From an uncultured delta proteobacterium (GTDB lineage Bacteria > Desulfobacterota > Desulfomonilia > Desulfomonilales > Desulfomonilaceae), in the NCBI GenBank assembly GCA_963700305.1, contig CAVOXB010000027.1, forward strand, positions 320,358-384,357: a DNA stretch of 64,000 bases, read 5' to 3'. The position numbers and the translations under genes were made by a program. This document shows positions 10,269 through 56,984 of the stretch, piece after piece. How positions within the stretch are numbered: position 1 is the first letter of the stretch; the number at the start of each line of letters is the position of its first letter. The notes below the pieces were generated by a model. That model was given only the letters and a program-made list of their open reading frames with translations. It ran no database searches and was not told the origin of the DNA.

Positions 10269-10287
10269 GGGACGAATGGCGACGACA

Positions 10288-13681: not shown

Positions 13682-14194
13682 TCAATCAGGTCTGACTTTG
13701 CGAAGAAATTCTATAATGAATACGGTTAGTATGCCTTCAACGACCATGACAGGGATTTGAGATAGAACGATCAGGCGTGCGGCTGTATAAAAGGATTCGC
13801 CTGTGGCCAGGAGTGAAACCGCCACCAGCAGCCCTGAAGCAAGTATAACCCCGGCGCCCGCGGAAAATTCAGCAGCGAATCGTACTTTCTTAGCAGGACT
13901 CTTTATCCCTTTTCGACAAATGTAATAAAAAACTACAGCAGGAAAGGCCATGTTAAAGGTGTTGACTCCCAAAGTCGTCAATCCGCCGAACTGAAATAAA
14001 AGCGCCTGAAGCGTCAACCCCACCAGAATTGCAGGAAAGGCAGCCCACCCCAATAGCAGTCCGCAAACGCCGTTCAAAACGAGATGCGCAGCGGACGGCC
14101 CTACCGGAACATGGATCAGAGAGGCCACAAAGAAAACTGACGCCAGAACGGCTACCTCGGGCAGTTTCTCATAATCTGTCCTTTTCAGTCCCAC
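13682..14194 (-). CDS. CbiM/NikM-family membrane protein (ECF-type Co/Ni transporter substrate component), N-terminally short (170 aa, GTG start)
   Basis: LTLQALLFQFGGLTTLGVNTFNMA and [16 protein letters not shown] match CbiM core motifs. No in-frame extension is possible (upstream stop at 14246-14248). The N-terminal MHxxxG metal-binding segment is therefore absent. Confidence 0.6.
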   Translation of the reverse strand: MGLKRTDYEKLPEVAVLASVFFVASLIHVPVGPSAAHLVLNGVCGLLLGWAAFPAILVGLTLQALLFQFGGLTTLGVNTFNMAFPAVVFYYICRKGIKSPAKKVRFAAEFSAGAGVILASGLLVAVSLLATGESFYTAARLIVLSQIPVMVVEGILTVFIIEFLRKVRPD

Positions 14195-14278
14195 AGCAAC
14201 TCCGGCCGCTGTGAAAACTGCCCCCGCAACAAGTACCGGGGGCGCTCAACACTCCTTCGGATATGTGCATGCGCTACT

Positions 14279-16299: not shown

Positions 16300-16583
16300 T
16301 ACTGGAAACTGAAATCACGGAAACAACTCTCAGAGTAGGTAACCAATTAGGGATTCACGCAAGAGTGGCTACCATGATGGTTCAGGCTATGCAAAATTAT
16401 ACCTGCCAGGTTACGTTGGTGAAAGATGGTGTGGAAGTTGATGCCCGAAGTGTGCTAGGATTATTGCTTTTAGCCGCCACACCAGGAAGTGAACTTGTCG
16501 TACCAGCACACGGCCCGGATTCCAGGCAAGCAATTCAGGAGATAAGCCGACTTATACAAGATGAAGAGACCGAAGAAGGTTGA
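16296..16583 (+). CDS. ptsH: Phosphocarrier protein HPr
   Basis: 95 aa. MILETEITETTLRVGNQLGIHARVATMMVQ contains the active-site His15 context (GIHARVA). Confidence 0.85.
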   Translation: MILETEITETTLRVGNQLGIHARVATMMVQAMQNYTCQVTLVKDGVEVDARSVLGLLLLAATPGSELVVPAHGPDSRQAIQEISRLIQDEETEEG

Positions 16584-16635
16584 CAAGAAAAAATCCCGGA
16601 CGCCCAAAGTAAGCGAAAACGATACCAACAGGTTG

Positions 16636-18984: not shown

Positions 18985-19341
18985 GGGGGCGACATGGTTT
19001 CGACGGGGATAGTTGAGGTCAAGGCTGCATGTCGAGCACTCCGGTGACTCGTTAAACCGCCGGTAAATAAATTTACTCGCCAATAATCACGAGTACGCAC
19101 TAGCCGCGTAAGGCTAGCGTTTCTCTGCTTTTCTCCTGCGGGGGTGGAAGAAGCGACGGTCAGCAGGATAGCCGAGTTTCCGTGCCTGTTGGGAACAACG
19201 CGAAAAAAAAAGCGGGCTGGTCCGACGAGAAACCTTGTCTGAGGGGGTCTCAGCGGACGAGAAACAAAACTCGGAATAAGCATGTAGACGCCTTCGGCTG
19301 AAGATTTCCGGACGCGGGTTCGATTCCCGCCGCCTCCACCA
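18985..19341 (+). ncRNA. ssrA: tmRNA (SsrA). Tag reading frame 19079-19111 encodes ANNHEYALAA*.
   Basis: 5' GGGGGCGACAUGGUUUCGACGGGG. 3' GGACGCGGGUUCGAUUCCCGCCGCCUCCACCA. The acceptor stem has the G3:U70 identity pair. The resume codon is GCC and the tag ends ...YALAA-UAA. Confidence 0.9.
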
Positions 19342-22600: not shown

Positions 22601-23263
22601 GTGTGCGGCACTGGCTCTCACTTTGGGATCCGGGTCATGCGCCATTGCTTTGATCAACAATGGCACAGAATGATCACCACTCATGAAAGAAGCCGCCTTT
22701 GCCCTCACCACTGGAGAAGGATCTCTCAATCCAATTTCGTTGTATTTGTCCCTTTCCGGATGACCTTGCTGATTGATTACTTCCAGCGCCTTTTGTCGTT
22801 CGGTTGCCGACTTGCTATTGAGGAAACTCGCCGTCTGGTCCTCAGCAAGCGCTGGATCGACCCTATAGTAATGACAATCCATCCCGAGGTTACCGGCGAA
22901 CGCTTCGTTACGAGTCCTGAAGCCCGAGACGCGTAATCCGTCCTGCACGGAATTGGGATCATCCTGCTTCGAGCCCTCCAGCCGGACAAAGGGCAGATAG
23001 CAGTCTGATGAGGAGATTTCAAGAAGGACATGTTGCTCGTCAGCTTCGACAACTGTGTAGGGGACATTTTTACTCTTGCACTCATCCCAGGTTATGTTCT
23101 CTTTCCGCAGGACTATGATGGAAGTCATGCAGGCGCGGGATTCTCCCTGATATGTTCCGATAAAAGACGGCGGCACTTCTGCGCCGAAAGCCACTGAGGA
23201 GACGGCAAGCGCCAGAAGAATGGCCAAAAGCAGCACCCTATCAGAAGTAGAACTCATGACCAC
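19610..23263 (-). CDS. Large secreted multi-domain protein (1217 aa): signal peptide, HEAT/PBS-lyase repeats, two tandem ~330-aa repeats of an unrecognised domain, an LprI/DUF1311-like domain, and C-terminal ankyrin repeats
   Basis: Signal peptide MVMSSTSDRVLLLAILLALAVSSVAFGA. HEAT-like segment DPSPVVRAKAASF...HDPDPKVRASAAHSL. Duplicated module CEFAGLALPE(S/N)YAIFAAGGYS...TQMDVTVNYS. DUF1311-like segment FDCSKARSEVEKIICASDELLTLDNSLVMAYQQVL...WLENERNEC. Ankyrin repeats DGSTVLMYAALSGNLELVKHLVNRGASVNARDKDGKTTLMAVAAKGDLETVRFLLDSGADV. Confidence 0.7.
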   Translation of the reverse strand: MVMSSTSDRVLLLAILLALAVSSVAFGAEVPPSFIGTYQGESRACMTSIIVLRKENITWDECKSKNVPYTVVEADEQHVLLEISSSDCYLPFVRLEGSKQDDPNSVQDGLRVSGFRTRNEAFAGNLGMDCHYYRVDPALAEDQTASFLNSKSATERQKALEVINQQGHPERDKYNEIGLRDPSPVVRAKAASFMSGDHSVPLLIKAMAHDPDPKVRASAAHSLSSFYRDIDSGPEGDSDADDESVRDKDSAKNKDSAADPRITLLEQNLDDLLIGLKRLTTLRTVVEILGGEYDYGDSVVCRMSAKSQEKALSALKHQLETVKLVKEVSWALHPGEPPRWSEASQAIPRAIEKISKCHLTTQSTLPSDAASAPDYKKEEERKRQSVDHRKKTCEFAGLALPESYAIFAAGGYSGRTLDFQIDQSGHQATQMDVTVNYSSKPIVLMLGAYEPTIWNIKWTATTRIIGVLVSGYHHQAIAGLDATVPVLNSSSADRGPCPCGYFYVGQRENSEKINQISRNLFGRPVDLVYPAKNGEVVIGDPVPAREKLITSESNSPESFHDTTAPIAGPAGLEDAVRKGFLRKATEADADAWVDALIANGPDRDVPLIAGKGRPKPPRPHTWDAYVVLKPFSYPAGLYGGHLANLFVPEGVPQPKGDPGHSFVYNFNHLKAYKKALEELGEDQEGLSEDQTRKGCEFPGLALPENYAIFAAGGYSRRKLHFQIDQSGNQATQMDVTVNYSTKPVVIMLGAYGPTIWNIKWTAATRIAAVFVSGYHRQAVAGLDANVPVLNSSYDNKGPCGYAVVGEAEKELLEFNPMSRRLFGHPVDLVYLTKNGKAVVGDPVPAGEKLITSESNPPESFYDKTAPRAGRAGLKDAVRKGLLRKATDADADAWVNAEIANAPKTDPRIAGQARAMPRRPGIHNTYVVLKPFTFPAGLDSDPAAFFIPKGVPLPQGNPGPLRVLDFNKFKIEPPQPAPQTQDSKRAFGGNIHAASFDCSKARSEVEKIICASDELLTLDNSLVMAYQQVLDRTRKKEEMIQSQNQWLENERNECQDAQCIKKAYEIRIRELGPSSYGIVIFRPPIRSTPYSEVNDKLLKAAKKGSLEEVKTLLEKGADVSAKDQDGSTVLMYAALSGNLELVKHLVNRGASVNARDKDGKTTLMAVAAKGDLETVRFLLDSGADVHAEAANGNTALQLAEEEDNREIVRLLESRGAEE

Positions 23264-23569: not shown

Positions 23570-24190
23570 GTAAGCCCCCGGCTTTGCCGGGGAGACTCCC
23601 CAAGGTTTGACCGTGTGAGGCAGTAAGAGGCAACCTCCCAGAACACACCAAATTTCAATTCTGGGAGGTTTTCATGAAAGACTATAAGAGCCTAAATCAC
23701 ACGAAGTGGGATTGCAAGTATCATGTGGTTTTCATTCCCAAACGCCGGAGAAAGCAGATTTACGGTTCCCTTCGGAAATACCTGGGAGAGATATTTCATG
23801 AGTTGGCTCGCCAAAAGGAGTCCCAGATAGTGGAAGGACATCTGTGCTCGGATCATGTCCATGTGTGCATGAGTATTCCACCCAAGTTTGCTGTGTCCAA
23901 CGTGATCGGGTACATCAAAGGCAAGAGTGCGATCTCCATTGCAAGGAATTTCACAGCGAGAAAGCGGAACTTTGCAGGAGAGAGCTTTTGGGCTCGTGGC
24001 TACTATGTCTCAACAGTGGGTTTGGACGAAGAGTCTGTAAGGAAGTACATTTCGCGAGCAGGACGCCAAAGACGCAAGGCTCGATCAACTGAACTGGCTT
24101 TCTGACGACGACCCGTCCCCTTCAGGGGACTCATGAGCTGACCCCCTTGGGGGGCTAACAGGAATATGCCCCCGGCTTTGCCGGGGGTAA
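23570..24190 (+). mobile_element. IS200/IS605-family insertion sequence (tnpA only) with subterminal hairpins
   Basis: Left-end hairpin CCCCGGCTTTGCCGGGG at 23575-23592. Right-end hairpins GTCCCCTTCAGGGGAC, CCCCCTTGGGGGG and CCCCCGGCTTTGCCGGGGG at 24100-24188. Confidence 0.7.
23674..24105 (+). CDS. tnpA: IS200/IS605 family transposase TnpA (HUH Y1)
   Basis: 143 aa. MKDYKSLNHTKWDCKYHVVFIPKRRRK...HLCSDHVHVCMSIPPK contains the HuH motif (HVHV) and the catalytic Tyr region (GYYVSTVG). Confidence 0.85.
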   Translation: MKDYKSLNHTKWDCKYHVVFIPKRRRKQIYGSLRKYLGEIFHELARQKESQIVEGHLCSDHVHVCMSIPPKFAVSNVIGYIKGKSAISIARNFTARKRNFAGESFWARGYYVSTVGLDEESVRKYISRAGRQRRKARSTELAF

Positions 24191-24231
24191 TTTAACCTAA
24201 CTGATATGTTGCGATTTATCGGTGCCTCAAT

Positions 24232-24260
24232 CGGGTTCGATTCCCGCCGCCTCCAACAGT
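24232..24260 (+). repeat. attR-like direct repeat of the tmRNA 3' end (CGGGTTCGATTCCCGCCGCCTCCAaCAGT)
   Basis: 24 of 24 identical to tmRNA 19315-19338, with continued identity after one mismatch. No D-arm or anticodon arm upstream, so it is not a tRNA gene. Confidence 0.6.
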
Positions 24261-24439
24261 AACAACTTAATATGATTGGACGTTTCTTAACCGAAACGGA
24301 GTGTAATAGGGGAGGTTCTGTCGGAGAACGGAGCCCCACGATGATAAGGGAACCTATGTCCTGAACGGTTCTCAGACAGTAAGTCCGTCGGCTGGCGACG
24401 TCAGTCCGGAAGAGAAATCGGTCGAATCGTCCTCATTGG

Positions 24440-24781
24440 TTATCTCGCTCTGTAAGCCGAGTGCGCCAACAGGGCCGTCAGGACAGCATGCACCACGACC
24501 GCCGGCCACAACAGCGGCCCCGCCCATTCGCTAAGGATGCCGATGTAAGCCAGATAGGCTGTCACCAGGGCGCTGTAGGTCAGCATGCCGAGCAATGCCA
24601 ATCCCGGCAAGCAAGCGATACCCAACGCAATCAGGGCGATGCCGGCCACACGAGCTACCGGAATCGAAACTCCGGTAAGCTCGGCGCCGAGCAATACCCG
24701 TCCGACAAGCCCTGGAACAACCAGCAGCGCCAAACCCGTGGTCGCTTCGGCCACAGCGGCGAGAGTCAGCAGTCTTTTCAT
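24440..24781 (-). CDS. Small hydrophobic membrane protein (113 aa), GC-rich
   Basis: Three to four predicted TM helices. It sits in the GC-rich segment with the sulfatase. Confidence 0.4.
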   Translation of the reverse strand: MKRLLTLAAVAEATTGLALLVVPGLVGRVLLGAELTGVSIPVARVAGIALIALGIACLPGLALLGMLTYSALVTAYLAYIGILSEWAGPLLWPAVVVHAVLTALLAHSAYRAR

Positions 24782-24804
24782 TCGTCGAACCGCGTTCAGT
24801 CTCG

Positions 24805-27288
24805 CTACCGGGCGACAGCCTCAGCGGCTTGTTTGTGTTCCGTTTCGGCGTGCTGCGCCGGTTCGAGTTTGAAGGTCAGCTTGTTGATCTTGCCGGTGAA
24901 CTTGAATGGGACGTCGTAGCGATACTCCAGCATCGCGACCCCGGTCCGCGTGTCCTGGCCTATATCGAAGGTTTCGTCCTCCGGGAACGTGATCGGGGTG
25001 GTGTGTTCCAGGGAATTCCGGGCCACTTCCTGACCGTCCACATACAGCACGCCCGTACCTCCCTTGCCCAGGCCCGGGCCGGCAGACTTGAAGTCGAAGA
25101 CGATGGTGTGCTTCCCCGATTTCAACTCAGGCCCCTCCCATGTCGTGCGCTTGAGATCGAGCAGGTTGTAGAGAAACACCACCTTACCGCGCCCGAAGCC
25201 GAACTCGCCCTTGCTCAGGAACAGGCCGTAGCCGCCGAAGCGTCCGCCATCGGTGACGATCATGCCTTCCGCTCCACCTTCAGGAATTTCTACCTCGGCA
25301 GTAATTGTGTACGACTTGTTCAGGATGTTCGGTGCGCCACTGTTAGGGACGCCGGTCAGTTCTCCCGAATAGGTGAAGACCGTTCGTCCCCCCGTGAGGT
25401 TCGGCCGAGGCGTGTTCCAGCGCGCGAGCGACGAGTTGTCGAGCGGCAGCACGTCGTATTTTTGCGCCTCCAGATAGAAGATGGCCTGCATCTGCTTGAG
25501 CTTCTCCGGCATCTTGGCGGCCAGGTCGTTGAACTGGGTGGGGTCCTCCTGGACATTGTAGAGCTCCCACTTGTACCCGGTTATCACGTCCGGCGGCGTG
25601 GCGGTGCTGAGCTCCCAGGGAAGGTTCGCCGGTGTCGTGCACGCAACCCAGCCATCGTGGTAGATGGCTCTGTTGCCGAGCATCTCGAAGTATTGCGTGG
25701 AGTGCCGGGTCGGGGCATTGGCGTTTGCCTTGTCCCAGGTGTAAATCGTGCTCACTCCTTCGATGGGGCGTTGTTTGATGCCGTTGATCGTCTCGGGTGA
25801 CGGGATGCCTGTCGCTTCGAGGATTGTCGGCACGACGTCGATGACGTGATGGAACTGGTGGCGGATGCCGCCCACGTCCTTTATGTGGCCAGGCCAGGAC
25901 ACCGCCATGCCCTGGGCCGTCCCTCCGAAATGGGACGCCACCTGCTTCACCCACTTGAACGGCGTGCTCATCGCCCACGCCCAACCTGCCGCAAAGTGTG
26001 GGAACGTCCGTTCCGAGCCCCAGAACTCGTACCAGAGAAACTGGTCCTTGACCGGAACGGCAACGCCATTGAACGTGGTGAACTCGTTCGGCGTACCGTT
26101 GAGCATACCCTCAGCGCTCGCGCCGTTGTCACCGCTGATGTAGATGATCAAGGTGTTGTCGAGTTGCCCGAGGTCTTCGACGGCCTGGATGACCCTGCCG
26201 ATCTCATGGTCGGTGTACGCGAGGTACGCCCCGTAGACGTCGGCCTGCTTGATGAAGAGCTTCTTCTCCTCCAAGCTGAGTGAATCCCACTCCGGCAGTT
26301 CCTTCGGCCAAGGCGTCAGCTTCGCGTTCTCGGGCATGATGCCCAGCCGCTTCTGATTAGCGAAGATGGTCTCGCGGACTTTGTTCCAGCCCTCATCGAA
26401 GAGATGCATGTCGCTGACCTTCTTGATCCATTCAGAAGTAGGATGATGCGGCGCGTGCGTGCCGCCCGGCACGTAATAGACGAAGAACGGTTTATCGGGC
26501 GCGATCTCTTTGAGCTGCTTCATGTACTGGATCGCCTCGTCGGCCATGGCCGTGGTCAGGTTCCAGCCGGGGCTGCCCTGAAAGGGGTAGATAGACGTCG
26601 TGTTGCGAAACAGGTTCGGTTGCCACTGGCTGGCGTCGCCGCCAACGAAGCCGTAGAAATACTCGAAGCCCAATCCGTTCGGCCACTGGTCGAACGGCCC
26701 GGCCTGGGTTGCCTGATAAAACGGTGTGTTGTGGTTCTTGCCGAACCACGAAGTTGCATAACCATTGTCCCTAAGGATGGCGCCTATTGTGCCGTTCTCC
26801 TTCCGGATGATCGAGTCGTACCCCGGGAACCCCGTCGCGATTTCGCCCACGACGCCGAAGCCGGCCACGTGATGGTTGCGTCCCGTGATAATCGCAGCCC
26901 GCGTCGGTGAGCACAGCGACGTGGAGTGGAAGTTCGTGTAACGCAGTCCATTGTTCGCGATGCGATCCAGGGCCGGGGTCGGGACAACGCCGCCGAAGGT
27001 GCCCGGCGCGCCGTAGCCGACATCGTCCGTCATGATGAGTAACACATTGGGCGCGCCCTTCGGGGGAACGACGCGTGGCGCCCACCACGCCTTCGACTCA
27101 GAGGCTTTCTCCTTGATCACCCCCCCAAATTTCGGGTCTGGTGGAGGAAGCTGCTTTCCGTCAATGGTTGTGGTCGCATCCGGTGAGCCCGGTACGCCGG
27201 TGATCTGCTGAGCGTTGCCGGGACTGGCAACAGCCGTGACGAGGGCAATCAAGGCTACGTACATCAATAGTTGATTTCGAGGACGCAT
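24805..27288 (-). CDS. Arylsulfatase (Cys-type sulfatase family S1), secreted, with a roughly 300-aa C-terminal extension
   Basis: Signal peptide (MRPRNQLLMYVALIALVTAVASPGNAQQ). Sulfatase signature LIMTDDVGYGAPGTFGG...TNFHSTSLCSPTRAAIITGR (C-x-P-x-R). GC is visibly higher than in flanking DNA. Confidence 0.85.
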   Translation of the reverse strand: MRPRNQLLMYVALIALVTAVASPGNAQQITGVPGSPDATTTIDGKQLPPPDPKFGGVIKEKASESKAWWAPRVVPPKGAPNVLLIMTDDVGYGAPGTFGGVVPTPALDRIANNGLRYTNFHSTSLCSPTRAAIITGRNHHVAGFGVVGEIATGFPGYDSIIRKENGTIGAILRDNGYATSWFGKNHNTPFYQATQAGPFDQWPNGLGFEYFYGFVGGDASQWQPNLFRNTTSIYPFQGSPGWNLTTAMADEAIQYMKQLKEIAPDKPFFVYYVPGGTHAPHHPTSEWIKKVSDMHLFDEGWNKVRETIFANQKRLGIMPENAKLTPWPKELPEWDSLSLEEKKLFIKQADVYGAYLAYTDHEIGRVIQAVEDLGQLDNTLIIYISGDNGASAEGMLNGTPNEFTTFNGVAVPVKDQFLWYEFWGSERTFPHFAAGWAWAMSTPFKWVKQVASHFGGTAQGMAVSWPGHIKDVGGIRHQFHHVIDVVPTILEATGIPSPETINGIKQRPIEGVSTIYTWDKANANAPTRHSTQYFEMLGNRAIYHDGWVACTTPANLPWELSTATPPDVITGYKWELYNVQEDPTQFNDLAAKMPEKLKQMQAIFYLEAQKYDVLPLDNSSLARWNTPRPNLTGGRTVFTYSGELTGVPNSGAPNILNKSYTITAEVEIPEGGAEGMIVTDGGRFGGYGLFLSKGEFGFGRGKVVFLYNLLDLKRTTWEGPELKSGKHTIVFDFKSAGPGLGKGGTGVLYVDGQEVARNSLEHTTPITFPEDETFDIGQDTRTGVAMLEYRYDVPFKFTGKINKLTFKLEPAQHAETEHKQAAEAVAR

Positions 27289-27952
27289 CGCTGTCTCCTC
27301 CATCAAGAGATTCTTAACCTTTAATATCATTTATTTTTCGACCTTAACCCGGCATTCAAAGAAGGCCTCGCAATTCTACCTTCGCAGCGGGCGATGAAAA
27401 TTCACGGATTTGTTACCTGCGACCCGCTCAGGCCTTTTGTAACACCCCACAGTGTCCTAGATCATCAAATCCGTCATCAACATTATCAATAAATTCTCCT
27501 ATTCAGCATAACTGTCCCCACGCGTCTCCGTCAATCAGAATCCTTCGCGTTTCCGCATATCATTGATGATTGCCTAGAGCGGCGCCAGAAAAAGGGCCTG
27601 ATTCAAGAATGAACAAATCGCTAGTCAAGTCCCCTCCCGGCCAATCATCGACAGAAACAGCCCACTTGAAAATCAGCTCGTTTAGCGGAAAGGACGTCGT
27701 GCATTTCATCGGATGCAATCTACCAGAAGACAGAGGTAATAGCATGATATGACAGCATTTAATGACTTGTGGATCGGGTTAGATTCCGCGTCTTCCCCCT
27801 GTGATTGCTAGGCATTGATGCTTTGTACCGAAAAACAAAGGCGTGCAAACCAATGCGCACCTTGGTAGTGTACTCGTCATTTGTGATCTCGAATTGTTTC
27901 CAAGGCGCGGGACAAGCAACGGTAACCCACCAAATAAAATTGCAGGCAAACC

Positions 27953-28207
27953 ATGTCTGAGACTCCGTTTAAATCCTGGAATCGCACTGCAGTCCGATGC
28001 TTGGCTAGTTCCAGGGCAGACGAAAGGCCCCTCTCGTTTTTGGTGGGCGATGACGAGATCCAGGTTGCCTCGGTTGTGGAGTCCTGGCGGGAACCGGATT
28101 ATCTCTATTTCAAAGTAGAGACCAGAGCTGGCCGGATATATGACCTCAGGCATCATGAATATGAGGATTCTTGGCAGGTAAGAGAATCGCCGCACCAGGC
28201 AACCTAG
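27953..28207 (+). CDS. Hypothetical protein (84 aa)
   Basis: ORF only, no recognisable motif. Confidence 0.2.
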   Translation: MSETPFKSWNRTAVRCLASSRADERPLSFLVGDDEIQVASVVESWREPDYLYFKVETRAGRIYDLRHHEYEDSWQVRESPHQAT

Positions 28208-40265: not shown

Positions 40266-40372
40266 AAGTCCGGTGATCGGGTGAGGGCCGGCCCCCGAGA
40301 TTACTTCCGCTGCTTCCTTCCGGACCTGACGGGTTCAGTAACTCCAGGCCGCCCTCACCCGGTCACCGGATA
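40266..40372 (-). ncRNA. ffs: Signal recognition particle RNA (4.5S RNA), small bacterial type, immediately upstream of dnaX
   Basis: The minus strand reads ...CCGGUGACCGGGUGAGGGCGGCCUGGAGUUACUGAACCCGUCAGGUCCGGAAGGAAGCAGCGGAAGUAAUCUCGGGGGCCGGCCCUCACCCGAUCACCGG. It contains the conserved domain IV motif GUCAGGUCCGGAAGGAAGCAGC inside a long terminal helix. Confidence 0.8.
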
Positions 40373-40847: not shown

Positions 40848-41480
<633 letters not shown>

Positions 41481-45448: not shown

Positions 45449-45564
45449 TTTTGTGCCGAAAGATTGAATGGGTCTAGAATAGCGGCAGACAAGTAATGAC
45501 CATAAAAAGATGAATCATTTCCAGTCCCCTAACTTTAATGCTATCCGAGGAGGGATAGCATTGT

Positions 45565-45632
45565 GAGGCAGGCTTTCGAGCCTGCCTGTCCTAAAATGGC
45601 AAAAATGGCAGGCTGGAATGCCTGCCCCGCAA
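45565..45632. repeat. Repeat family 2 (REP-like) paired unit: GCAGGCTTTCGAGCCTGCC - 18-nt spacer - GGCAGGCTGGAATGCCTGCCCC
   Basis: Homologous paired hairpins at 53641-53707 with a near-identical spacer, and more degenerate copies at 47927-47952 and 57034-57096. Confidence 0.55.
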
Positions 45633-48086: not shown

Positions 48087-48518
48087 TTACTTTTTCTGCT
48101 CTTCTATCTTCCTGATTTCCTCTTTCACGAAGTCTTTGAATGCATCATCAGGTGACATGAGAGCGGCCATCTCGGCCTCCAGATTGGACGGACGAATTTT
48201 ACAGATCCAGGCCTCTCCGTAAGGGGATTCGTTCATCTTCTCAGGTTCGTCTTCCAGCATTGAATTGACTTCCGCCACTTCGCCGCTTACTACCGCGTAA
48301 ATCCTGCCCACCCACTTTCCGGATTCAATCGAGCCGTATGGCTTTCCTTGAGCGAGTTCATCCCCCTCCTGAGGAAGATCGACAAATGTTATTTCTCCGG
48401 CTTGCTTAGAAATAAATTCCGTAGCGCCTGTCACAACAAGATCACCCTCGACTTTTGCCCAGAAATGGTTCTTTTCGTATGTTAGATCGTCGGGGAAAAA
48501 ATAACCTTCATAGTCCAT
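48087..48518 (-). CDS. GcvH-like lipoyl-carrier protein (glycine cleavage H-protein family), adjacent to hdrB and hdrC
   Basis: ...GKPYGSIESGKWVGRIYAVVSGEVAEVN... The lipoyl-Lys context (ES.K) is conserved. Confidence 0.7.
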   Translation of the reverse strand: MDYEGYFFPDDLTYEKNHFWAKVEGDLVVTGATEFISKQAGEITFVDLPQEGDELAQGKPYGSIESGKWVGRIYAVVSGEVAEVNSMLEDEPEKMNESPYGEAWICKIRPSNLEAEMAALMSPDDAFKDFVKEEIRKIEEQKK

Positions 48519-48580
48519 TGCAGCCTCCTTCGAAAGGCCGATTTGCGATCGACCAAATACCTAGAATCAATTGCACAACC

Positions 48581-49456
48581 TCAACCCTCAACGATCTTCA
48601 GAAGACCGGAAGGCTTAACACGATTGAGTTTGAATCCCAGTTGCTCTGAAGTCAGGCCTAACGCCAGACCCAGGATCTGCGGATAGTAGACTACAGGAAC
48701 TTTTAGATCAAGACCGGCACTCTTGGCTATCTTTTTTTGCTGACCCTCGTACATCACGTTGCAAAATGGACAGACAAGGACCAATGCATGAGCCCCGGTT
48801 GCCGCCACATCCTTGAGCTTCGTAGCCGCCAAGGCATTGGCAGTTATTTCGGAAGTTCCGAGAACTCCCCCTCCGCAACAGTCCTGAAGCGACGGATACT
48901 TCGCGACACTAGCTCCGGTAGCTTCGATGAGTCCCGCTAGCGTCCTAGGCATGTGCGGCGAGTCAAAGCCTGCAGTGAGCTCGGAAGGCTTGAGATAATG
49001 ACAACCGTAATGTGGAGCTAGCAACACATCAGTCAACGGTCGAACAACAGCGCTTCTGATTGCCTCCACCCCGATCTCTTCCCACAGTAGCCTCATATAA
49101 TTGCGAACCCGCACGGGGCCTTCGTAGCGCAGCCCTACTTTTTCCAGCCGCTCGTTTACTTTGGCTTTTAGATCCGGGTCAGAGTCAAGCATATGCGCGG
49201 TTTCAGTAAGGGTTCCCGCACACGCATTGCACAGCGCGCATATTTCTAAACCTTCTCGGTCGGCAAGCGCAAGATTGCGCGTGGCCGTGGTGATCGTGTC
49301 GAAAACGTCAAGCGACTTCAGCGGAAATCCGCAGCAGCCGAACGACTCATGATCACGAAAAGAGATCCCAAGCCTCTCAGCGGTCAGCCGAGCCGACACT
49401 TCATAATTCAGATTGCGGACCGGAACAGTGCACCCAAGGTACAAAAGCGCTTTCAT
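48581..49456 (-). CDS. hdrB: Heterodisulfide reductase subunit B-like protein (two CCG domains)
   Basis: N- and C-terminal Cys-rich CCG motifs (CTVP...CCGF, CPFC...CCGG). Confidence 0.75.
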   Translation of the reverse strand: MKALLYLGCTVPVRNLNYEVSARLTAERLGISFRDHESFGCCGFPLKSLDVFDTITTATRNLALADREGLEICALCNACAGTLTETAHMLDSDPDLKAKVNERLEKVGLRYEGPVRVRNYMRLLWEEIGVEAIRSAVVRPLTDVLLAPHYGCHYLKPSELTAGFDSPHMPRTLAGLIEATGASVAKYPSLQDCCGGGVLGTSEITANALAATKLKDVAATGAHALVLVCPFCNVMYEGQQKKIAKSAGLDLKVPVVYYPQILGLALGLTSEQLGFKLNRVKPSGLLKIVEG

Positions 49457-49550
49457 GAAATTTTTCTCTTAGCTCCTCGTTTCTGGGTTCCAGCCTGGGG
49501 CATACATAGATTCGTTTCATAATCGCCGACAGGACAAACTATAAAAATGA

Positions 49551-50015
49551 TCACAACAGGCCCGCGTAATCTTCCGGATGCTCGACAATCCGAGGCAGAC
49601 CCAGTTTTTCTCGTTTCTCGTTTTCGAAATCAGTGACCTCGTACAAACGGCCGTGCTCTTTGAGCAGATTCCTTTGGGCAGTCAAACCCGGAGGAATGCA
49701 TGCCTCCGCTACAGCAAGATTTTTCAGGGCGAACATGACTTCAGTGAATCGCACGTTTTGAGGACACACCTCATGGCAACCATAGCAGGACGAACACAGC
49801 CAGAGGAAGTCGCTTTCCAGCACTTCTTTCTCCATTCCCAGCAGGATCATCCTAATGATTTTGCGCGGATCGTATCGCTTGTCCACCGCTTCGACCTGGC
49901 ACGCTGAAGTGCACGCTTTACAACCGAAACAAGCTCGAATGCCTTCCCCGCCCGGTTGTTGTGCCACACGGTCTTTGAAGCAAGGGTTGAAATCATTTAT
50001 TTTCTTGCGGCTCAT
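49551..50015 (-). CDS. hdrC: Heterodisulfide reductase subunit C-like 2x[4Fe-4S] protein
   Basis: CFGCKACTSAC ... CSSCYGCHEVCP, two ferredoxin-type CxxCxxCxxxC(P) motifs. Confidence 0.75.
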   Translation of the reverse strand: MSRKKINDFNPCFKDRVAQQPGGEGIRACFGCKACTSACQVEAVDKRYDPRKIIRMILLGMEKEVLESDFLWLCSSCYGCHEVCPQNVRFTEVMFALKNLAVAEACIPPGLTAQRNLLKEHGRLYEVTDFENEKREKLGLPRIVEHPEDYAGLL

Positions 50016-50037
50016 GGGGAACTCCGGCGAGGCTAGA

Positions 50038-51642
50038 TCAAGTTGTCCTTGCCCCGGAATCGATAAATTTAAGGGCGTCCATTCTCTTCAATGCAGTCAG
50101 AAGAGCGTCGGGTGTATTCCCAGCCAACGGGACGAACATCACTTGCTCGGCGTTTATCCCGCTTTGTGCAAGCAATGCTGCCGCATGGCGAGTTTTTTCT
50201 TCAGCCAAAGACGTGCCGTAAACCGAGGCACAGTTGCCCTTGAAGCAGCCGGTCACTATCACACCCTTTGCCCCTTCCCGAAAAGCGGCAAGGATGTGAG
50301 CTACATCCACGGTCCCCGCGCACGGCATCTCTATGAGCACGGCGGAATCATGGATTTGATCGGCAATGTAACTTGCGGCCTGTGCACCGGAATGAGAGCA
50401 CACAAGAATAACCGTTTTCTTACCTGCGTGGCCTTGAAATTCTGCTCTTATTCGTTGAGAGATCTCTTGATCCTCGGAAGAATGCTCAAGCTTGATGGCA
50501 GACATCGGGCACGCTGTCGCGCAAATCCCGCAACGCATACAAGAGCCAGGATCTGCGAAAGCGTATCGTGTGAATCCCATTGCTCCATGAGGACACAATC
50601 GAACACATGTCAGGCAAATCGCACATTTGTCGGGGTCAATCTTTGGAGGTCCAGGAGCCTTTGCGTTCGAGCCGGGGACTTCCAAGCTCTTGAGATAAGA
50701 CGGAATGACCTCAATATCTGAATCCACCAACTCCGGAGAAAAAATCCCTCGAGAAGCCCCCACGGCCAGGATTCCTGCCTTGGGTGTTTCAACGGAAGAG
50801 AATCGCGGCGACTCCGGCTGCAAGTAGGGGATGCAAGCAGGAGATGATGGCAACGCGGCCCAAAGAGGCTCCAGACCCTGTGGAGGCAAGAAGTCTTCAT
50901 CCACCACAACCAGGTCAGGGGTCAGTTCCATTTCCAGGCCCAATAGAGGTTCCCTGAATATCATCGTGAGGCCGTCTGAAGCTTGCTCAAAAACCGGACC
51001 TTCACCGTCGAATTTGAAAAACAGGGTCCCGTTTTCCCTGCATTCTCGATAACGTCTTTCCAGACCGTCCGCTGCTACTTTGAGATTCCGCGTAAATACG
51101 TGACACTGAATCTGGTCTGCACTTCGGAGTTTCTCGATTGCGGCCAAGATTCTGGCAAACGTCGGGGGATCGGATTCTCCCTCCAATCCGAAGAGAAAAG
51201 CCGCATGAAACCAATCCCATCGAGATTCTGGCAGCGGTTCACCGGCTTGGAGCTTCAGTTCCAGCTCTGATAACGAAATAACCCGACTATCGGCCTGAAT
51301 TCCGTACGCTTCAAATTTCGGCTTCACACGTGGAGGTTGAGCCGCAATGATGGCTCCGACCCGTTCTCTACGGCGACCAGAAGGTGTGCGCAAGACTATC
51401 TGAAAGTCACCGGCGAAGCCCTGGATTTCGTCCAGCGTAGCGTCCGGAATGACTCTGATATTGCTGTCAGACGCGTTGTTTTCGACTTCTCCGACGAGCA
51501 GGATCTTGAATTGATGTTCCGAAAGCCTGCAGGCCAGTTGAAAACCCGTACGATCACCACCGAGCACCAGCACGCAGCGGAAATCCCGCTCTCCAGGCTC
51601 GTTCCCGGTGAGGAAAACAGAATCACATGCCACCGTTTTCAC
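50038..51642 (-). CDS. HdrA-related protein (degenerate nucleotide-binding region, 2x[4Fe-4S] ferredoxin domain) fused to a C-terminal MvhD/FlpD-like domain
   Basis: CAICLTCVRLCPHGAM...CMRCGICATACPMSAI (dicluster ferredoxin). MvhD-like C-terminus: VILVCSHSG...EMPCAGTVDVAHILAAFREGAKGVIVTGCFKGNCASVYG. Confidence 0.65.
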   Translation of the reverse strand: MKTVACDSVFLTGNEPGERDFRCVLVLGGDRTGFQLACRLSEHQFKILLVGEVENNASDSNIRVIPDATLDEIQGFAGDFQIVLRTPSGRRRERVGAIIAAQPPRVKPKFEAYGIQADSRVISLSELELKLQAGEPLPESRWDWFHAAFLFGLEGESDPPTFARILAAIEKLRSADQIQCHVFTRNLKVAADGLERRYRECRENGTLFFKFDGEGPVFEQASDGLTMIFREPLLGLEMELTPDLVVVDEDFLPPQGLEPLWAALPSSPACIPYLQPESPRFSSVETPKAGILAVGASRGIFSPELVDSDIEVIPSYLKSLEVPGSNAKAPGPPKIDPDKCAICLTCVRLCPHGAMGFTRYAFADPGSCMRCGICATACPMSAIKLEHSSEDQEISQRIRAEFQGHAGKKTVILVCSHSGAQAASYIADQIHDSAVLIEMPCAGTVDVAHILAAFREGAKGVIVTGCFKGNCASVYGTSLAEEKTRHAAALLAQSGINAEQVMFVPLAGNTPDALLTALKRMDALKFIDSGARTT

Positions 51643-52672
51643 TTGTCCTCCCCGGTTTGGATTTTTCTATATAGGAAGCTACTTCGCCAGCGGTCCGGAT
51701 TGCATCGAACATGCTTTCCTCTATGGAGCGAGGTCCTTTGGCCGCTCCGGTAACAAACAGTCCGCTGCGTTTCGAGCCAGCTGCCAAAACATCTGGGCCC
51801 AGAAATCCGTCAGCACCGACATTAAGGCCCAAGAGATCTGCCAGTTGCGCCGAAGACTCACCCGCAGCGATGCCTACGCTCAATACCACCAGATCATAAG
51901 CCTCGAAAACTCTCTCATCTGTCGGTCCGTGATAAACCAGCTCCGGCCGACCATCCGAATCCTCACGAATCTGAGACGGAATCGCCCTCACGAGCCTCAT
52001 TTCTTTCTGAGCGGCTAGAAGGCGGGAATCGAAATCGCGGTCAAAAGATTGTATGTCCATGTAGAAAATAGATGCTTCTAATTCCGGAAAACGGTTTCGC
52101 AACAATCGGCCTAGTCTCAGTGCGTAAGCACAACACACTCTAGAGCAATAATTAGCCCCAATTTTGGGATCACGACTGCCTACGCATTGTATGAAGGCCA
52201 CCCTTTTGATGCCTTGACCCAAAGAGTTTGCTCTGAGACGGTATTCCAGCTCCAGTGAAGTGATTACGCCCGGAATACGGCCGCAACCAAACTGGGGTTT
52301 CATCTGAGGGTTGAACGTTGTAAAGCCGGAAGCAATTACAAGCGCTGATGCGTGAACCTGAGTTTGATCAGTGCTACCGATCTTAGAGAGATTGAGCTGC
52401 CACCCGTCCTGTGTCATATGAGCTTCGGAAAGCGAGGAGTTCGTCATCGTGAAAACTCTTTTCGAGTTCTTCGCCTTTTGAAGCGTCTCTTCCCACAAGC
52501 ACGCTCCACAGCGCTGACATTGATCCGTTGCTTTACAACAGAGTCCGGCAGCGTGACCACCCAAGATTTCCTCTTTTTCCAACACGAGTGAGTCAAACCC
52601 TAGACGCGCCAATTCTGCAGCGCACGAAAGCCCGCCGATACCGCCGCCAATAATAACTGCGTCTCGTCTCAT
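51623..52672 (-). CDS. hdrA: Short HdrA-like FAD-dependent oxidoreductase (FAD domain only, 349 aa)
   Basis: VIIGGGIGGLSCAAELARLGFDSLVLEKEEILGGHAAG (FAD GxGxxG). HdrA hallmarks FIQCVGSRD, YCSRVCC, IFYMDIQSFDRDFD, DLVVLSVGIAAGE are present. The N-terminal Fe-S and C-terminal ferredoxin domains of canonical HdrA are absent. Confidence 0.7.
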   Translation of the reverse strand: MRRDAVIIGGGIGGLSCAAELARLGFDSLVLEKEEILGGHAAGLCCKATDQCQRCGACLWEETLQKAKNSKRVFTMTNSSLSEAHMTQDGWQLNLSKIGSTDQTQVHASALVIASGFTTFNPQMKPQFGCGRIPGVITSLELEYRLRANSLGQGIKRVAFIQCVGSRDPKIGANYCSRVCCAYALRLGRLLRNRFPELEASIFYMDIQSFDRDFDSRLLAAQKEMRLVRAIPSQIREDSDGRPELVYHGPTDERVFEAYDLVVLSVGIAAGESSAQLADLLGLNVGADGFLGPDVLAAGSKRSGLFVTGAAKGPRSIEESMFDAIRTAGEVASYIEKSKPGRTSENGGM

Positions 52673-52850
52673 AAAATTGTCCCATAATTCGGCATTATGA
52701 ACATTTTTAATCCAGAGCTTGGGAGGCTGAAAATCTCGAAGGAAAGCCCGATGCAGACAAAAAAAACGGAATCAGGTATTCCTGGTTCATCTCTTCATCA
52801 AACGGCATGTCGCAGTGTAAAAGAAATGACTGTCGATCAGCCTCTGCAGC

Positions 52851-53528
52851 TCAACCCGAGGGAAACCTCTTCTGAAATTCCGGACGAACCACTTTGCCCG
52901 GATGTGAGCTTCTATCATAGCTCCTGGGCGGCACTATTTCCATAAGAATATCGAGCCGCGATTGCTTTTCCAGCCTTTTGATGATTTGAACCCAGGCACA
53001 ATCTCTTTCCGAGTCAGTCTCACATTTTCCGTTAGTGGGGCCTCCACAAGGGCCGTTCAGGAGACTTTTCGCGCACATGGTCACCGGACAGATTCCGCCC
53101 GTGATTCCTAGATAACATTGATTGCACGATCTACAGCGCTCAGTCCACACCCCCGCGTCTTCGGCTACTCCTATGAAGCTGGTATCAACTCCGGGGAAAA
53201 CAGGAGTCTCCGGGTACGCTTGCGCAAGAAATTGTATGCCTGCACCGCAGGCAAGAGATACGACAGCGTCTACTCGGGACACACGATCTCTGAGAAGATA
53301 CAAAAACTCTCTGTCACACTGGCGCTCAACAGTGGCTGCAGACACTTGCATGTCTTTGCCTTCGACTGAGGCTGCAAGTTTTAGCTGAGTAGCCAGAAGA
53401 CCTGCTTCCTTTTCACCACCGGCAAGGCACACAGCGACGCACGTGCCGCAACCCACGACGAGAATTCTCGAGTAATTATTTATCAGGGCTTTGATTTCAG
53501 AAAATGGCTTGGGTTGGGCGACTATCAC
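52851..53528 (-). CDS. Protein with an MTHFR C-terminal-like zinc-ribbon domain (MetV-like)
   Basis: CRSCNQCYLGITGGICPVTMCAKSLLNGPCGG is the MetV/MTHFR_C signature. Confidence 0.55.
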   Translation of the reverse strand: MIVAQPKPFSEIKALINNYSRILVVGCGTCVAVCLAGGEKEAGLLATQLKLAASVEGKDMQVSAATVERQCDREFLYLLRDRVSRVDAVVSLACGAGIQFLAQAYPETPVFPGVDTSFIGVAEDAGVWTERCRSCNQCYLGITGGICPVTMCAKSLLNGPCGGPTNGKCETDSERDCAWVQIIKRLEKQSRLDILMEIVPPRSYDRSSHPGKVVRPEFQKRFPSG

Positions 53529-53640
53529 TCGTACCTCCGTTTCCGGGACTCCGCCACTTCAAAGGATACTGGATGGAAGCGAGAACTGTCAAGGATGGCA
53601 GGTGACATTCACTCGACCTTGTACAGAAAGCACTTTGTGG

Positions 53641-53707
53641 GGCGGGCTTTCCAGCCTGCCTGCTCTAAAGAGCCAATGATGGCAGGCTGGAAAGCCTGCC
53701 CCACGGC
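53641..53707. repeat. Repeat family 2 paired unit (GGCGGGCTTTCCAGCCTGCC - 18-nt spacer - GGCAGGCTGGAAAGCCTGCCCCAC)
   Basis: Near-identical architecture to 45565-45632. Confidence 0.55.
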
Positions 53708-55019: not shown

Positions 55020-56984
55020 CTATTTTACGACGTCTGTCGACAACGTACTCTTGTCAGTAAAAGTCAGAGTAACCGTAAGTCTTGCATTGGGATCAGACAG
55101 CAATCCGTTATCCGCCGCATATAAATGAAGGGTCTTCCTACCGGAGAGGGGTAACTGCATGGGGCTTGGTTTCGTGTTAACCAGTTTATATATTTCTGGG
55201 TAGACTGCCACGCCGAGAAACATTACGGGAGCCTTGGGGTCGCTGGACCATCTCATTGTTCCATCGGAACCGCTGATGTCCACGCGGGCCAATTTCTTGT
55301 CGTCAACCTGGAGCCTCGTGATGAATGTCCCGTCAAGATAGCCGTCTTTTCCGGGTCTGGTTGATGTGTTCACCAGGTCAGCTACGAAGCCCCTGAATTC
55401 AGAAGTCACAACACCTTTCGCCTTGGGAGATTCATCTGTGCCCGGCACCACGCTGGAAGTGGATGCCGGCTTGAGAAATAACTGCTGGTAAGAGGACCCA
55501 TCCGCAAGATGGACGATCATCCGGAATTGCTGAGTAGAGGTTGTCACGTCTCCAGAATCAGCAGCATATATATTGAACTGGACCCGATTATCTACAGGTA
55601 TTCTAATGGTTCCGTCAGGTTTGTTTAGCAGGGCTGTCGGCGCGGAACGATAAGCCGCGGCCAGACCCCAGGCTTTGGAGTTCGGTTGAGTGCTCCATTT
55701 CCTAGAGGTTCCGCTCGCTGTTTCTATCTCGATCCCTGTGATCTCATTCTTTGGGATGATTTCTATGTCCAAGCTGAAGACAGCGTCCGCAACACCATCC
55801 GGCTTTATGCCTGGATAAGGCCCAACTGCATCTGTAGTGACAAATCCTAGCCAGCTCGGCTGAAAATTGACTTTCTTCGAAGCGCCGGCCGGGACCTCCT
55901 CCTTCGACTCCTGCGGAGATGCCGAGGCTTTTTGCACCGGACACCAGGATACCCCTCCATCACTGAACGTCACAGAAACCCTGTAATTGGTTTTTCCGCC
56001 TTCAATGCTGCCGTTGTCAGCGACGTACAAGTTAAGCTCGACCCGGTCCTGCACGCTAATCCTTACTGTACCGTCGCGGCTGTTCAACAGCTTGACCGGG
56101 TCTGACGCCAACGCTACGCCAAGGGCCCCGTTCGGGCTGCTCGCAATGCTATCCCAGGCGGATTTAACCCCATCCGTGTTTCTGATCTCTACTCCAGTTA
56201 TTTCCTTGTCTTTGGCTTCCATTGTCAGGACAAATAGTCCGTCGGCCTTATCGTCACCTGCTATGTTTTTTCCGGGATTGACAGCGTCGTAGTTGGAGAC
56301 TCCTTTTAACACAGCGGACATTCGGACAGGATAAGCTGCTTGTTGCGCAGGGGCCTCTTCCGCTGGCCCCGCTTCAATTTTCACGGGCAAAGCCCAAGAC
56401 GTCCCGTCTGCCGCTATGACTTTGACCTGATATTTGCGATTTTTGTTGGCAAAATGCCCGTCATCTGTCGCCATGAGCAAGAGATAAGGATCATCCTGAG
56501 GATTAATGCGTACTTGTGCAGGTTGGCTGTTTATGATTTGTGACGGGGTTTTGGCTTTTGCCACGCCAAGGTAGGCTTCCGGTGCGGTTTTGGCTGAACT
56601 CCACACTCCAGGAGGTCCTGAAAGCGTACGGATTTCAATTTCGGAAATGGTTTGTTCGCCCGGACTGGACTTGAGGCTGAGCGTAAACACCGCGTCGGGT
56701 TTGCCATCGGGCTGGGCCTGGTTCTTGCCAACGCGGTCTGTCTTCTTGACTCCAACGAAAACTGCTTCGCCTCTGGGCTGACTCTGGGCAAAGATCAGTC
56801 CTGCAAGGGACAGAAGCGCCCCCGTGAGGAGGAGTCGAAAAAACAGCTTGAAAAATGAGGATTTAATAACCAGCCGGAGCCTCCCCTCAACTGGAAAACC
56901 AGAAGCCGCAAAATTCATCCATAATTGGCAATCTAGTTGACAACATTTCGGAATGTCAACTAAAAATTCCCGTCCTAGAAACAA
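55020..56984 (-). CDS. Secreted protein composed of four tandem ~110-aa repeats of an unrecognised domain
   Basis: Signal peptide present. Repeated blocks resemble G(K/D)xDAVF(T/S)L...EI(T/S)(G/E)IEI....G...W...............LLN...DG(T)IRI.V.....L.(L)YAAD.G. Confidence 0.55.
   Translation of the reverse strand: MFLGREFLVDIPKCCQLDCQLWMNFAASGFPVEGRLRLVIKSSFFKLFFRLLLTGALLSLAGLIFAQSQPRGEAVFVGVKKTDRVGKNQAQPDGKPDAVFTLSLKSSPGEQTISEIEIRTLSGPPGVWSSAKTAPEAYLGVAKAKTPSQIINSQPAQVRINPQDDPYLLLMATDDGHFANKNRKYQVKVIAADGTSWALPVKIEAGPAEEAPAQQAAYPVRMSAVLKGVSNYDAVNPGKNIAGDDKADGLFVLTMEAKDKEITGVEIRNTDGVKSAWDSIASSPNGALGVALASDPVKLLNSRDGTVRISVQDRVELNLYVADNGSIEGGKTNYRVSVTFSDGGVSWCPVQKASASPQESKEEVPAGASKKVNFQPSWLGFVTTDAVGPYPGIKPDGVADAVFSLDIEIIPKNEITGIEIETASGTSRKWSTQPNSKAWGLAAAYRSAPTALLNKPDGTIRIPVDNRVQFNIYAADSGDVTTSTQQFRMIVHLADGSSYQQLFLKPASTSSVVPGTDESPKAKGVVTSEFRGFVADLVNTSTRPGKDGYLDGTFITRLQVDDKKLARVDISGSDGTMRWSSDPKAPVMFLGVAVYPEIYKLVNTKPSPMQLPLSGRKTLHLYAADNGLLSDPNARLTVTLTFTDKSTLSTDVVK

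Follow-up and report, generated by a model that had tools for sequence, protein, structure and literature searches.

What a heterodisulfide reductase-like (Hdr) module is doing beside a lipoyl protein of the glycine cleavage type is the question raised by a cluster of six genes in the DNA analysed here, a stretch of 64,000 nucleotides (the window) from an uncultured delta proteobacterium of the family Desulfomonilaceae (NCBI GenBank assembly GCA_963700305.1, contig CAVOXB010000027.1, positions 320,358 to 384,357 of the forward strand). The cluster encodes, in this order, MetV, a short HdrA (HdrAs), a fusion of HdrA-like, ferredoxin and MvhD domains (HdrAp), HdrC, HdrB and a non-canonical GcvH-like lipoyl protein (GcvH'). 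In Wood-Ljungdahl bioenergetics, an answer is still sought as to how the reduction of methylene-tetrahydrofolate (methylene-THF) conserves energy, and for the Hdr-containing reductases the second electron partner and the substrate of HdrBC are sought as well. Judged from its gene content and motifs, the cluster is a variant of the MetFV-HdrABC-MvhD methylene-THF reductase of acetogens, which metF has left in the lineage that includes the window and Desulfomonile tiedjei, and we argue from genomic associations and from its diverged sequence that GcvH' is dedicated to this Hdr module, specifically to HdrB.

The six genes were identified by Pfam and NCBIfam profile searches, which bore out the identities given to them in a first-pass annotation of the window. 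A profile of the 534-amino-acid (aa) HdrAp family was scanned over one genome per species, and the 80 loci found were annotated by BLAST against the proteins of the window. In three close relatives (loci L004, L008 and L015), MetF (PF02219) is placed between MetV and HdrAs, the layout of L015 being otherwise identical to that of the window, and MetF is also present in cis in at least four other clades. Six Desulfarculales-like loci have the order HdrL (giant HdrA)-MvhD-MetV-MetF-HdrAs-HdrAp. In Armatimonadota and related loci the genes run HdrAs-HdrAp-HdrC-HdrB-MetV-MetF, and most of these loci have formate-THF ligase upstream. MetV is the iron-sulfur, zinc-ribbon-like subunit of reductases of MetFV type, and a comparison of 14 MetVs, among them Moorella-type ones adjoining MetF, shows all 13 of its cysteines to be invariant; the MetF-adjoining MetVs compared include those of Desulfofundulus and Thermoanaerobacteraceae loci. 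The MetV of the window is 77% identical to the D. tiedjei copy, and MetV has stayed highly conserved although metF is lost from the clusters of the window, L001, L002, L003, L006, L007 and L014. Thus, because MetV and MetF recur beside HdrAs and HdrAp and the cysteines of MetV are kept, the HdrAs/HdrAp pair is a recurrent partner of MetFV, and the presence of metF in the clusters of relatives indicates that the window encodes a reductase module of MetFV-Hdr type from which metF has been lost in cis. The kinship to acetogen MetFV-Hdr complexes proposed in the first-pass annotation is strongly supported by these loci.

The complexes of Moorella thermoacetica and Sporomusa ovata (PMC9430772) share with the cluster of the window the MetV cysteine set, an HdrA-type flavin adenine dinucleotide (FAD) domain, MvhD, HdrC and HdrB. 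The cofactor motifs of HdrA, MvhD, HdrC and HdrB are intact in the window, and the HdrA of the acetogen systems (PMC9430772) has no inserted ferredoxin domain, as is likewise the case for the HdrA proteins of the window. The differences begin with MetF, which is within the cluster in the close relatives of the window but not in the window itself. The acetogen HdrA is one protein of 101-163 kDa, whereas two separate proteins are encoded here, and the second thioredoxin reductase (TrxR)-like domain, which lacks FAD and cluster ligands, is fused to MvhD. The HdrA of S. ovata, as a point of likeness, also has two TrxR-like domains, of which only one has bifurcation-type residues. The giant HdrA of Moorella carries an NAD(P)H-binding domain (PMC9430772) that has no equivalent in the system of the window. 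Finally, the HdrB of the window is 27-29% identical to the Moorella-type protein and nearer to methanogen HdrB, and a GcvH-like gene is found behind hdrB.

HdrAs consists of a thioredoxin-reductase-like FAD domain, with no N-terminal, inserted or C-terminal ferredoxin domain, and has the motifs GGGIGG, C163-VGSRD and Y175-CSRVCC. Alignment indicates that G9, G11, G14, C46, C52, C55, C58, C163, C176, C180 and C181 are invariant; C163, C176, C180 and C181 are cluster cysteines of HdrA type, and C46-x5-C52-x2-C55-x2-C58 is an extra invariant motif that is absent from sHdrA (6tjr). The earlier statement that HdrA keeps only the FAD domain is to be corrected for this additional four-cysteine motif. 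Matches in the PDB include HdrA (5odc, E 9e-44) and sHdrA (6tjr, E 4e-35). In most relatives HdrAs is about 410 aa long and contains an inserted 2x[4Fe-4S] ferredoxin domain, which has been deleted in the window, D. tiedjei and L021. Two residues have been used to flag a bifurcating flavin, E356 and K409 of M. thermolithotrophicus (PMC9430772); the first corresponds to E143 of HdrAs and is kept, and the second corresponds to an invariant R186, a position occupied by Asn in sHdrA.

HdrAp consists of an FAD-less, HdrA-like pseudo-flavin domain, a 2x[4Fe-4S] ferredoxin domain and an MvhD [2Fe-2S] domain. It matches residues 436-655 of methanogen HdrA and MvhD in profile comparison, and the best folds for its AlphaFold2 model (pLDDT 85) are HdrA (8rvy_A, E 3e-20) and sHdrA (TM 0.71). 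The family has the motif GGDxxG, not GxGxxG, and no conserved cysteine in residues 1-330; its invariant cysteines are of ferredoxin type (C340/343/346/350 and C368/371/374/378) and of MvhD type (C415/441/466/471). There are 247 database relatives, with more than 100 full-length homologues among them; nearly all of the best 120 have lengths of 500-560 aa and 93-100% query cover, and the N-terminus that follows from the GTG start (MKTVACDSVFLTGNE) aligns with those of homologues (MKALGCDSVFLSGNQ and others). Taken together, HdrAs and HdrAp look like an asymmetric HdrA(-MvhD) dimer with one flavin.

HdrC contains two CxxCxxCxxxC motifs (C29/32/35/39 and C74/77/80/84) and is 84% identical to the D. 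tiedjei copy. In HdrB the cluster motifs are complete (C9, C41, C42, C76 and C79, then C152, C193, C194, C229 and C232), and these CCG motifs are predicted to form a disulfide-reducing site. The TIGR03288 score of HdrB, 226 bits, lies under the curated cutoff of 345, and the match to methanogen HdrB (9sfi_C, 207 bits, E 4e-60) covers the whole protein, whereas identity to HdrBs of Moorella type and Armatimonadota type is only 23-32%.

In 15 loci the gene for GcvH' comes directly behind that for HdrB; two of these, L027 and L031, are not of the Desulfomonilaceae, and their HdrAp is only about 30% identical to that of the window. Two quick neighbour-joining trees without support values were made, and in the tree of HdrB all GcvH-linked HdrBs form a single clade. 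The lipoyl lysine of GcvH' lies in the motif IESGK. Copies directly behind HdrB (nine loci aligned) have the motifs ES-G-K-W-V-G-R and N-H-(F/Y)-W, in place of ES-V-K-A/T-x-S/A-D and x-H-E-W in canonical H proteins (four solved ones and a GcvH sequence of E. coli). All of the canonical sequences compared keep H-E-W and, four residues past the lipoyl lysine, the Asp; Ser67 is Ala in one. Glu12, Glu14, Ser67 and Asp68 hold the aminomethyl-lipoyl arm in E. coli GcvH (PMC7733448). GcvH', which is about 39% identical to the E. coli sequence, has Asn17, Phe19, Gly71 and Arg72 at these positions. Its sole cysteine, C106, is within a conserved GWICKI strand.

Probes for LplA, LipS1 and LipS2 were run against the window and all loci, and matches were found in L021 only. 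This locus (positions 6946-14327, from a metagenome-assembled genome (MAG) of an uncultured deltaproteobacterium) has the order HdrAs-HdrAp/MvhD-GcvH'-LplA-LipS2-like-LipS1-like-Mrp, with no HdrC or HdrB between; Mrp is an Mrp-type Fe-S carrier, and the GcvH behind HdrAp has intermediate motifs (RKWIGT and DHSW). The scores of the LipS2-like protein (209.7 bits, cutoff 270) and of the LipS1-like protein (193.4 bits, cutoff 230) are both below cutoff. LplA is present there as two overlapping open reading frames (ORFs; 10336-10719 and 10700-11407), which may reflect a frameshift. The LplA/LipS1/LipS2 lipoylation set is a companion of sHdr-LbpA clusters and is rare, being present in only 0.9% of the genomes of bacteria (PMC10332631). 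The adjacency of GcvH' to HdrB, its tracking of one HdrB clade, the loss of the arm-holding residues and the lipoylation genes of L021 together argue that GcvH' is dedicated to the Hdr module, with HdrB as its specific partner. The lipoate-linked module envisaged in the first-pass annotation thus gains support from the HdrB lineage and from L021, although the window itself has no lipoate-assembly genes.

The foremost alternative, which we consider unlikely, is that GcvH' is a bystander, an ordinary or paralogous H protein of glycine cleavage located near the Hdr genes through shared C1/THF metabolism, and that HdrB uses some other thiol/disulfide, such as DsrC or a small molecule. The best solved relatives of GcvH' are all canonical H proteins, and its scores clear the NCBIfam equivalog and subfamily cutoffs narrowly (TIGR00527, 117.4 versus 115.85; PRK01202, 132.4 versus 117), yet all four residues that hold the aminomethyl arm have been replaced. 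The genes gcvH and lpdA have an analogous placement in clostridial Wood-Ljungdahl clusters, but neither gcvT nor gcvP is nearby in any locus (nor was lpd found in the window or beside GcvH' in the loci examined), and L021 has its dedicated LplA/LipS2/LipS1 set adjoining. In several loci gcvH also adjoins pdxS, which would suit a bystander; the adjacency to HdrB nevertheless holds where pdxS is absent (L002, L003, L027 and L031) and across HdrAp proteins of only 30% identity. The absence of GcvH from the MetFV-Hdr clusters of Bacillota and Armatimonadota is what would be expected of a bystander, but where GcvH' does occur it tracks exactly one HdrB lineage. In a GcvH homology search the listed matches were all orthologues of at least 77% identity, and the list is therefore uninformative about paralogues.

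The reading of GcvH' as the substrate of HdrB, in an operon that encodes the electron-transfer half of a MetFV-Hdr-type methylene-THF reductase of the Wood-Ljungdahl pathway, is one to which we would give an even chance. The non-cubane clusters of HdrB would have the lipoyl group of GcvH' as their dithiol/disulfide substrate. From HdrB, electrons would pass by way of HdrC and the FAD of HdrAs to HdrAp, with its ferredoxin and MvhD domains, and then through MetV to MetF, which would be encoded elsewhere in the genome of the window. The dihydrolipoyl/lipoyl couple (about -290 to -325 mV) would thereby be linked to the methylene-/methyl-THF couple (about -200 mV), the potentials being those discussed in PMC8760232. 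Dihydrolipoamide dehydrogenase (Lpd) could join GcvH' to NAD(H), replacing the NAD(P)H-binding domain of the giant HdrA of Moorella. Ferredoxin could be a third, bifurcating or confurcating partner, especially in relatives that keep the inserted ferredoxin domain; such coupling is less likely here because that domain is missing from HdrAs. A broader proposal, which is offered more tentatively, is that a diverged, dedicated lipoyl H protein is the physiological dithiol/disulfide substrate of HdrB in a family of MetFV-Hdr methylene-THF reductases and that lipoamide recycled by Lpd is the missing electron partner, possibly with ferredoxin-coupled bifurcation.

A model in which GcvH and LpdA donate electrons to MetVF was previously formulated (PMC8760232), with the same proposed chemistry, in which methylene-THF reduction has dihydrolipoyl-GcvH as its redox partner and ferredoxin may take part. 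Its basis is similar in that the clostridial Wood-Ljungdahl gcvH/lpdA clusters join the gene for a lipoyl H protein to MetV(F), but those clusters are without Hdr proteins (PMC8760232), whereas the diverged H-protein paralogue considered here is directly behind HdrB, a plausible dithiol/disulfide catalytic site. GcvH has also been proposed as the disulfide of HdrB in an archaeal cluster, that of Culexarchaeia (PMC9723716). If the interpretation is correct, protein-bound lipoate would have a third role, beside acyl/aminomethyl carriage and the sulfur carriage of sHdr systems, and the pairing of an Hdr module with a GcvH-like lipoyl protein is in any case not limited to sulfur oxidisers. A specialised lipoyl protein behind a methanogen-like HdrB, in a lineage with the cultivated and fully sequenced D. 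tiedjei DSM 6799, is a biochemically testable candidate for the HdrB substrate sought in Hdr-linked methylene-THF reductases.

Several observations weigh against this interpretation. No MetF was found within the 64-kb window by tblastn with four MetF probes, as the first-pass annotation had stated for the cluster, and a homology search with the MetF of a Desulfomonile MAG gave no match labelled as D. tiedjei among the best 120 MetF homologues, in a database where only about one quarter of proteins carry names. Neither lpd nor, with the LplA/LipS1/LipS2 probes, lplA or lipS was found in the window. GcvH' clears the NCBIfam GcvH cutoffs and could therefore serve glycine cleavage, and the Moorella-type and Armatimonadota clusters have no adjoining GcvH. 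In HdrAs, the K409 marker of bifurcation is replaced by Arg and the inserted ferredoxin domain is absent. The authors of the GcvH donor model themselves judged it unlikely for MetVF-only (Hdr-free) enzymes (PMC8760232). The six genes are called an operon on the basis of spacing and synteny.

The missing metF could also mean that, in the metF-less lineage of the window and D. tiedjei, MetV works without MetF and the module has been repurposed to another redox partner, with methylene-THF no longer its substrate, a possibility that appears somewhat more doubtful still than that of a bystander GcvH'. MetV has remained 77% conserved in spite of the loss of metF from seven clusters including that of the window, but it is known solely as a partner of MetF, all of its cysteines are kept, and the closest relatives with metF in cis (L015) have otherwise the same layout. 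The loss coincides, in the window and D. tiedjei, with the deletion of the inserted ferredoxin domain of HdrAs. An oxidoreductase gene upstream might indicate a new partner, being a zinc-dependent (Zn) alcohol dehydrogenase just upstream in the window, L003 and L015 and an aldehyde:ferredoxin oxidoreductase in D. tiedjei; upstream genes vary from genome to genome, however, and the one in D. tiedjei is on the opposite strand. An observation of the upstream region in its own right is a 654-aa protein without Pfam or NCBIfam match (55020-56984, minus strand), in which no internal repeats were detected by BLAST and which is found with 55% identity at the same upstream position in L003, L014 and L015.

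A role in sulfur metabolism of the sHdr type, in which lipoate-bound sulfur would be processed by HdrB, for example in the thiosulfate disproportionation of D. tiedjei (listed in PMC12998232), is improbable, more so than either of these. The likeness to the sHdr-LbpA system of Hyphomicrobium denitrificans (PMC6067878, PMC10332631) consists of the short HdrA of about 349 aa and an Hdr module with a GcvH-like lipoyl protein in the operon. HdrAs and sHdrA are indeed both 349 aa long and align end to end (residues 5-329 with 4-334 of 6tjr), so that the resemblance noted in the first-pass annotation is real for HdrA but does not extend to the system. The sHdr core hdrC1-hdrB1-hdrA-hyp-hdrC2-hdrB2 contrasts with the one HdrC/HdrB pair here, to which no hyp gene is added; a second HdrC/HdrB was not found among the ORFs of the window scanned. 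In LbpA proteins one cysteine near each terminus is strictly conserved (PMC6067878), and GcvH' lacks both. HdrAs has its extra four-cysteine motif, and at the K409 position it differs from sHdrA in having Arg, not Asn. The LplA, LipS1-like and LipS2-like genes typical of sHdr-LbpA clusters link the two systems through L021 only. Genes for DsrE, TusA and rhodanese did not turn up among the neighbours scanned in the window, and the genomic context is instead that of C1/THF metabolism, as is indicated by the linkage to MetV, MetF and formate-THF ligase in relatives. With a single HdrBC pair, no hyp gene, no LbpA cysteines and no lipoate-assembly genes in the window, the cluster was excluded from the sHdr systems.

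Other families with comparable domains were considered as well. The HdrA2B2C2 complex of Methanosarcina acetivorans (PMC5296606) resembles the system of the window in having an HdrA-fold domain with a C-terminal MvhD and in that the HdrB and HdrC of the window are methanogen-like. HdrA2 is the best NCBIfam match for both HdrA-like proteins, but HdrA2 unites FAD, four [4Fe-4S] clusters and MvhD on one polypeptide, which is not the arrangement here (NF040770, 119 and 190 bits versus a cutoff of 1100); the fusion has neither an FAD motif nor the HdrA cluster cysteines, and the flavin is on a separate short protein. The substrates also differ from those of HdrA2B2C2; Desulfomonile is not known to use CoM-S-S-CoB or F420. 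QmoAB(C), and the QmoAB-HdrCB of Gram-positive sulfate reducers, are alike in having a short HdrA-like flavoprotein and a longer HdrA-like/ferredoxin/MvhD-like protein, followed by HdrC- and HdrB-type genes, and homologues of HdrAp carry the label 'QmoB' from the Joint Genome Institute (JGI). No Qmo models are among the best 25 NCBIfam matches of either HdrA-like protein, and HdrC matches qmoC with 60 bits versus a cutoff of 300, being a protein of 154 aa without a membrane part. There is no QmoC and no aprBA or sat nearby, the QmoB-like protein is without an FAD motif, and the recurrent neighbours here are MetV and MetF. A Qmo identity taken from the JGI names was accordingly excluded for want of QmoC and apr context and for a GGDxxG sequence that is not an FAD motif. 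No Flx-type genes that would indicate FlxABCD-HdrABC membership were found in the cluster or its flanks.

The suspicion that HdrAs and HdrAp are one gene split by a frameshift or assembly error, raised in the first-pass annotation, has for support only a 20-nucleotide overlap in different frames at 51623-51642 (usually 4 nucleotides in relatives) and is refuted, since the parts of the HdrA2 profile covered by the two proteins overlap (positions 311-562 and 417-764), each has many full-length homologues with the same ends, and the two-gene arrangement, with its normal gene junction, is found in over 40 loci.

D. tiedjei DSM 6799 (CP003360.1) has all six genes in identical order, and pdxS, pdxT, truA and a radical SAM gene are found downstream in both that genome and the window. 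The order HdrAs-HdrAp-HdrC-HdrB-GcvH is shared by approximately a dozen Desulfomonilaceae and 'Syntrophaceae' MAGs, with MetV upstream in some only. The layout, which had seemed unfamiliar and perhaps distinct on first inspection, is therefore not unique, being kept in D. tiedjei and many MAGs of its family, and the complete genome in which the cluster already sits has been published without remark on it; the literature searches made turned up no account of the Desulfomonile cluster. The D. tiedjei proteins are annotated as 'hydrogenase iron-sulfur subunit' and 'glycine cleavage system protein GcvH', and the present analysis of the operon corrects the current names 'QmoB', 'hydrogenase iron-sulfur subunit' and 'glycine cleavage system protein H'. 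In a separate clade of loci (L020, L022, L024, L026 and L033) the ORF behind HdrAs-HdrAp is HdrC-like but longer, at about 235 aa, and the loci are without HdrB, MetV or GcvH.

The features of the cluster are listed below with their coordinates in the window.

Features of the metV-gcvH' region (positions in the 64,000-nucleotide window)
Feature	Position	Strand	Remarks
Six-gene cluster	48087-53528	minus	all co-directional; ORF list matches the coordinates of the first-pass annotation
MetV	52851-53528	minus	225 aa; GTG start; PF12225, E 1.7e-35
HdrAs (short HdrA)	51623-52672	minus	349 aa; best NCBIfam match HdrA2, 189.6 bits
HdrAp (HdrA-like/ferredoxin/MvhD fusion)	50038-51642	minus	534 aa; GTG start; Fer4 x2 and FlpD (PF02662, E 4.7e-21)
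HdrC	49551-50015	minus	154 aa; TIGR03290, E 5.5e-26
HdrB	48581-49456	minus	291 aa; two complete CCG motifs; PF02754 x2; TIGR03288, E 5e-67
GcvH' (non-canonical GcvH-like lipoyl protein)	48087-48518	minus	143 aa; PF01597, E 4.3e-36; lipoyl lysine K68
Promoter-like site TTGACA-18-TATCCT	53563-53592	minus	35 nucleotides upstream of MetV start; consensus scan 10/12

The intergenic gaps from metV to gcvH' are 178, -20, 22, 94 and 62 nucleotides. As the first-pass annotation had it, the layout is that of a single operon, with close spacing and one direction of transcription, and the six genes are predicted to form one operon that is conserved in Desulfomonilaceae. The promoter-like site counts as weak evidence, the number of such sites in the region being no higher than in shuffled sequence, and scans of the operon region for promoters and terminators gave no excess over shuffled sequence. 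An Rfam search for a riboswitch or leader RNA upstream of metV and hdrA gave only sub-threshold chance matches, which arise from a palindromic repeat. This palindromic element occurs twice (53637-53704 and 45563-45630) and consists of GTGGGGCAGGCTTTCCAGCCTGCC, about 20 nucleotides, and then GGCAGGCTGGAAAGCCCGCCCCAC; one copy is between the Zn-alcohol dehydrogenase gene and metV and the other is between pdxT and truA. Its arms have 4 matches, versus none in shuffled sequence, and the upstream copy (folding z = -5.1) was the source of three spurious Rfam matches. The element looks like a REP-like repeat or a bidirectional terminator.

Other features of the window were noted. A molybdopterin oxidoreductase ORF at 264-1844 (plus strand) extends upstream through an in-frame TGA at approximately 249-251, and the gene (1-1844) runs off the start of the window. 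The context of this TGA, NNIDHCARL-TGA-HSSTVAG, is that of the classic selenocysteine site in alpha subunits of formate dehydrogenase, the enzyme of the first step of the methyl branch of the Wood-Ljungdahl pathway. The ptsI gene (phosphoenolpyruvate-utilising enzyme I) is in two ORFs in different frames (16561-17538 and 17549-18394, plus strand), with the break inside the conserved GIGLFR|TEYLF near 17530-17545, indicating either a frameshift error or a pseudogene. A 1217-aa protein (19610-23263, minus strand) combines HEAT repeats towards the N-terminal end with ankyrin repeats towards the C-terminal end, which is unusual for a bacterium. The region 24000-28000, which includes a gene of the sulfatase family (841 aa, 24805-27330), has 55-59% G+C, compared with approximately 50% elsewhere, and may have been horizontally acquired. 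An ORF of 173 aa (40848-41369, minus strand) that matches only positions 68-148 of PF01548 (IS110-family transposase) is likely to be an insertion sequence remnant. Genes for transfer-messenger RNA (18985-19341, plus strand, 188.9 bits) and for the small signal recognition particle RNA (40272-40364, minus strand, 53.4 bits) were also found, both above the Rfam gathering thresholds.

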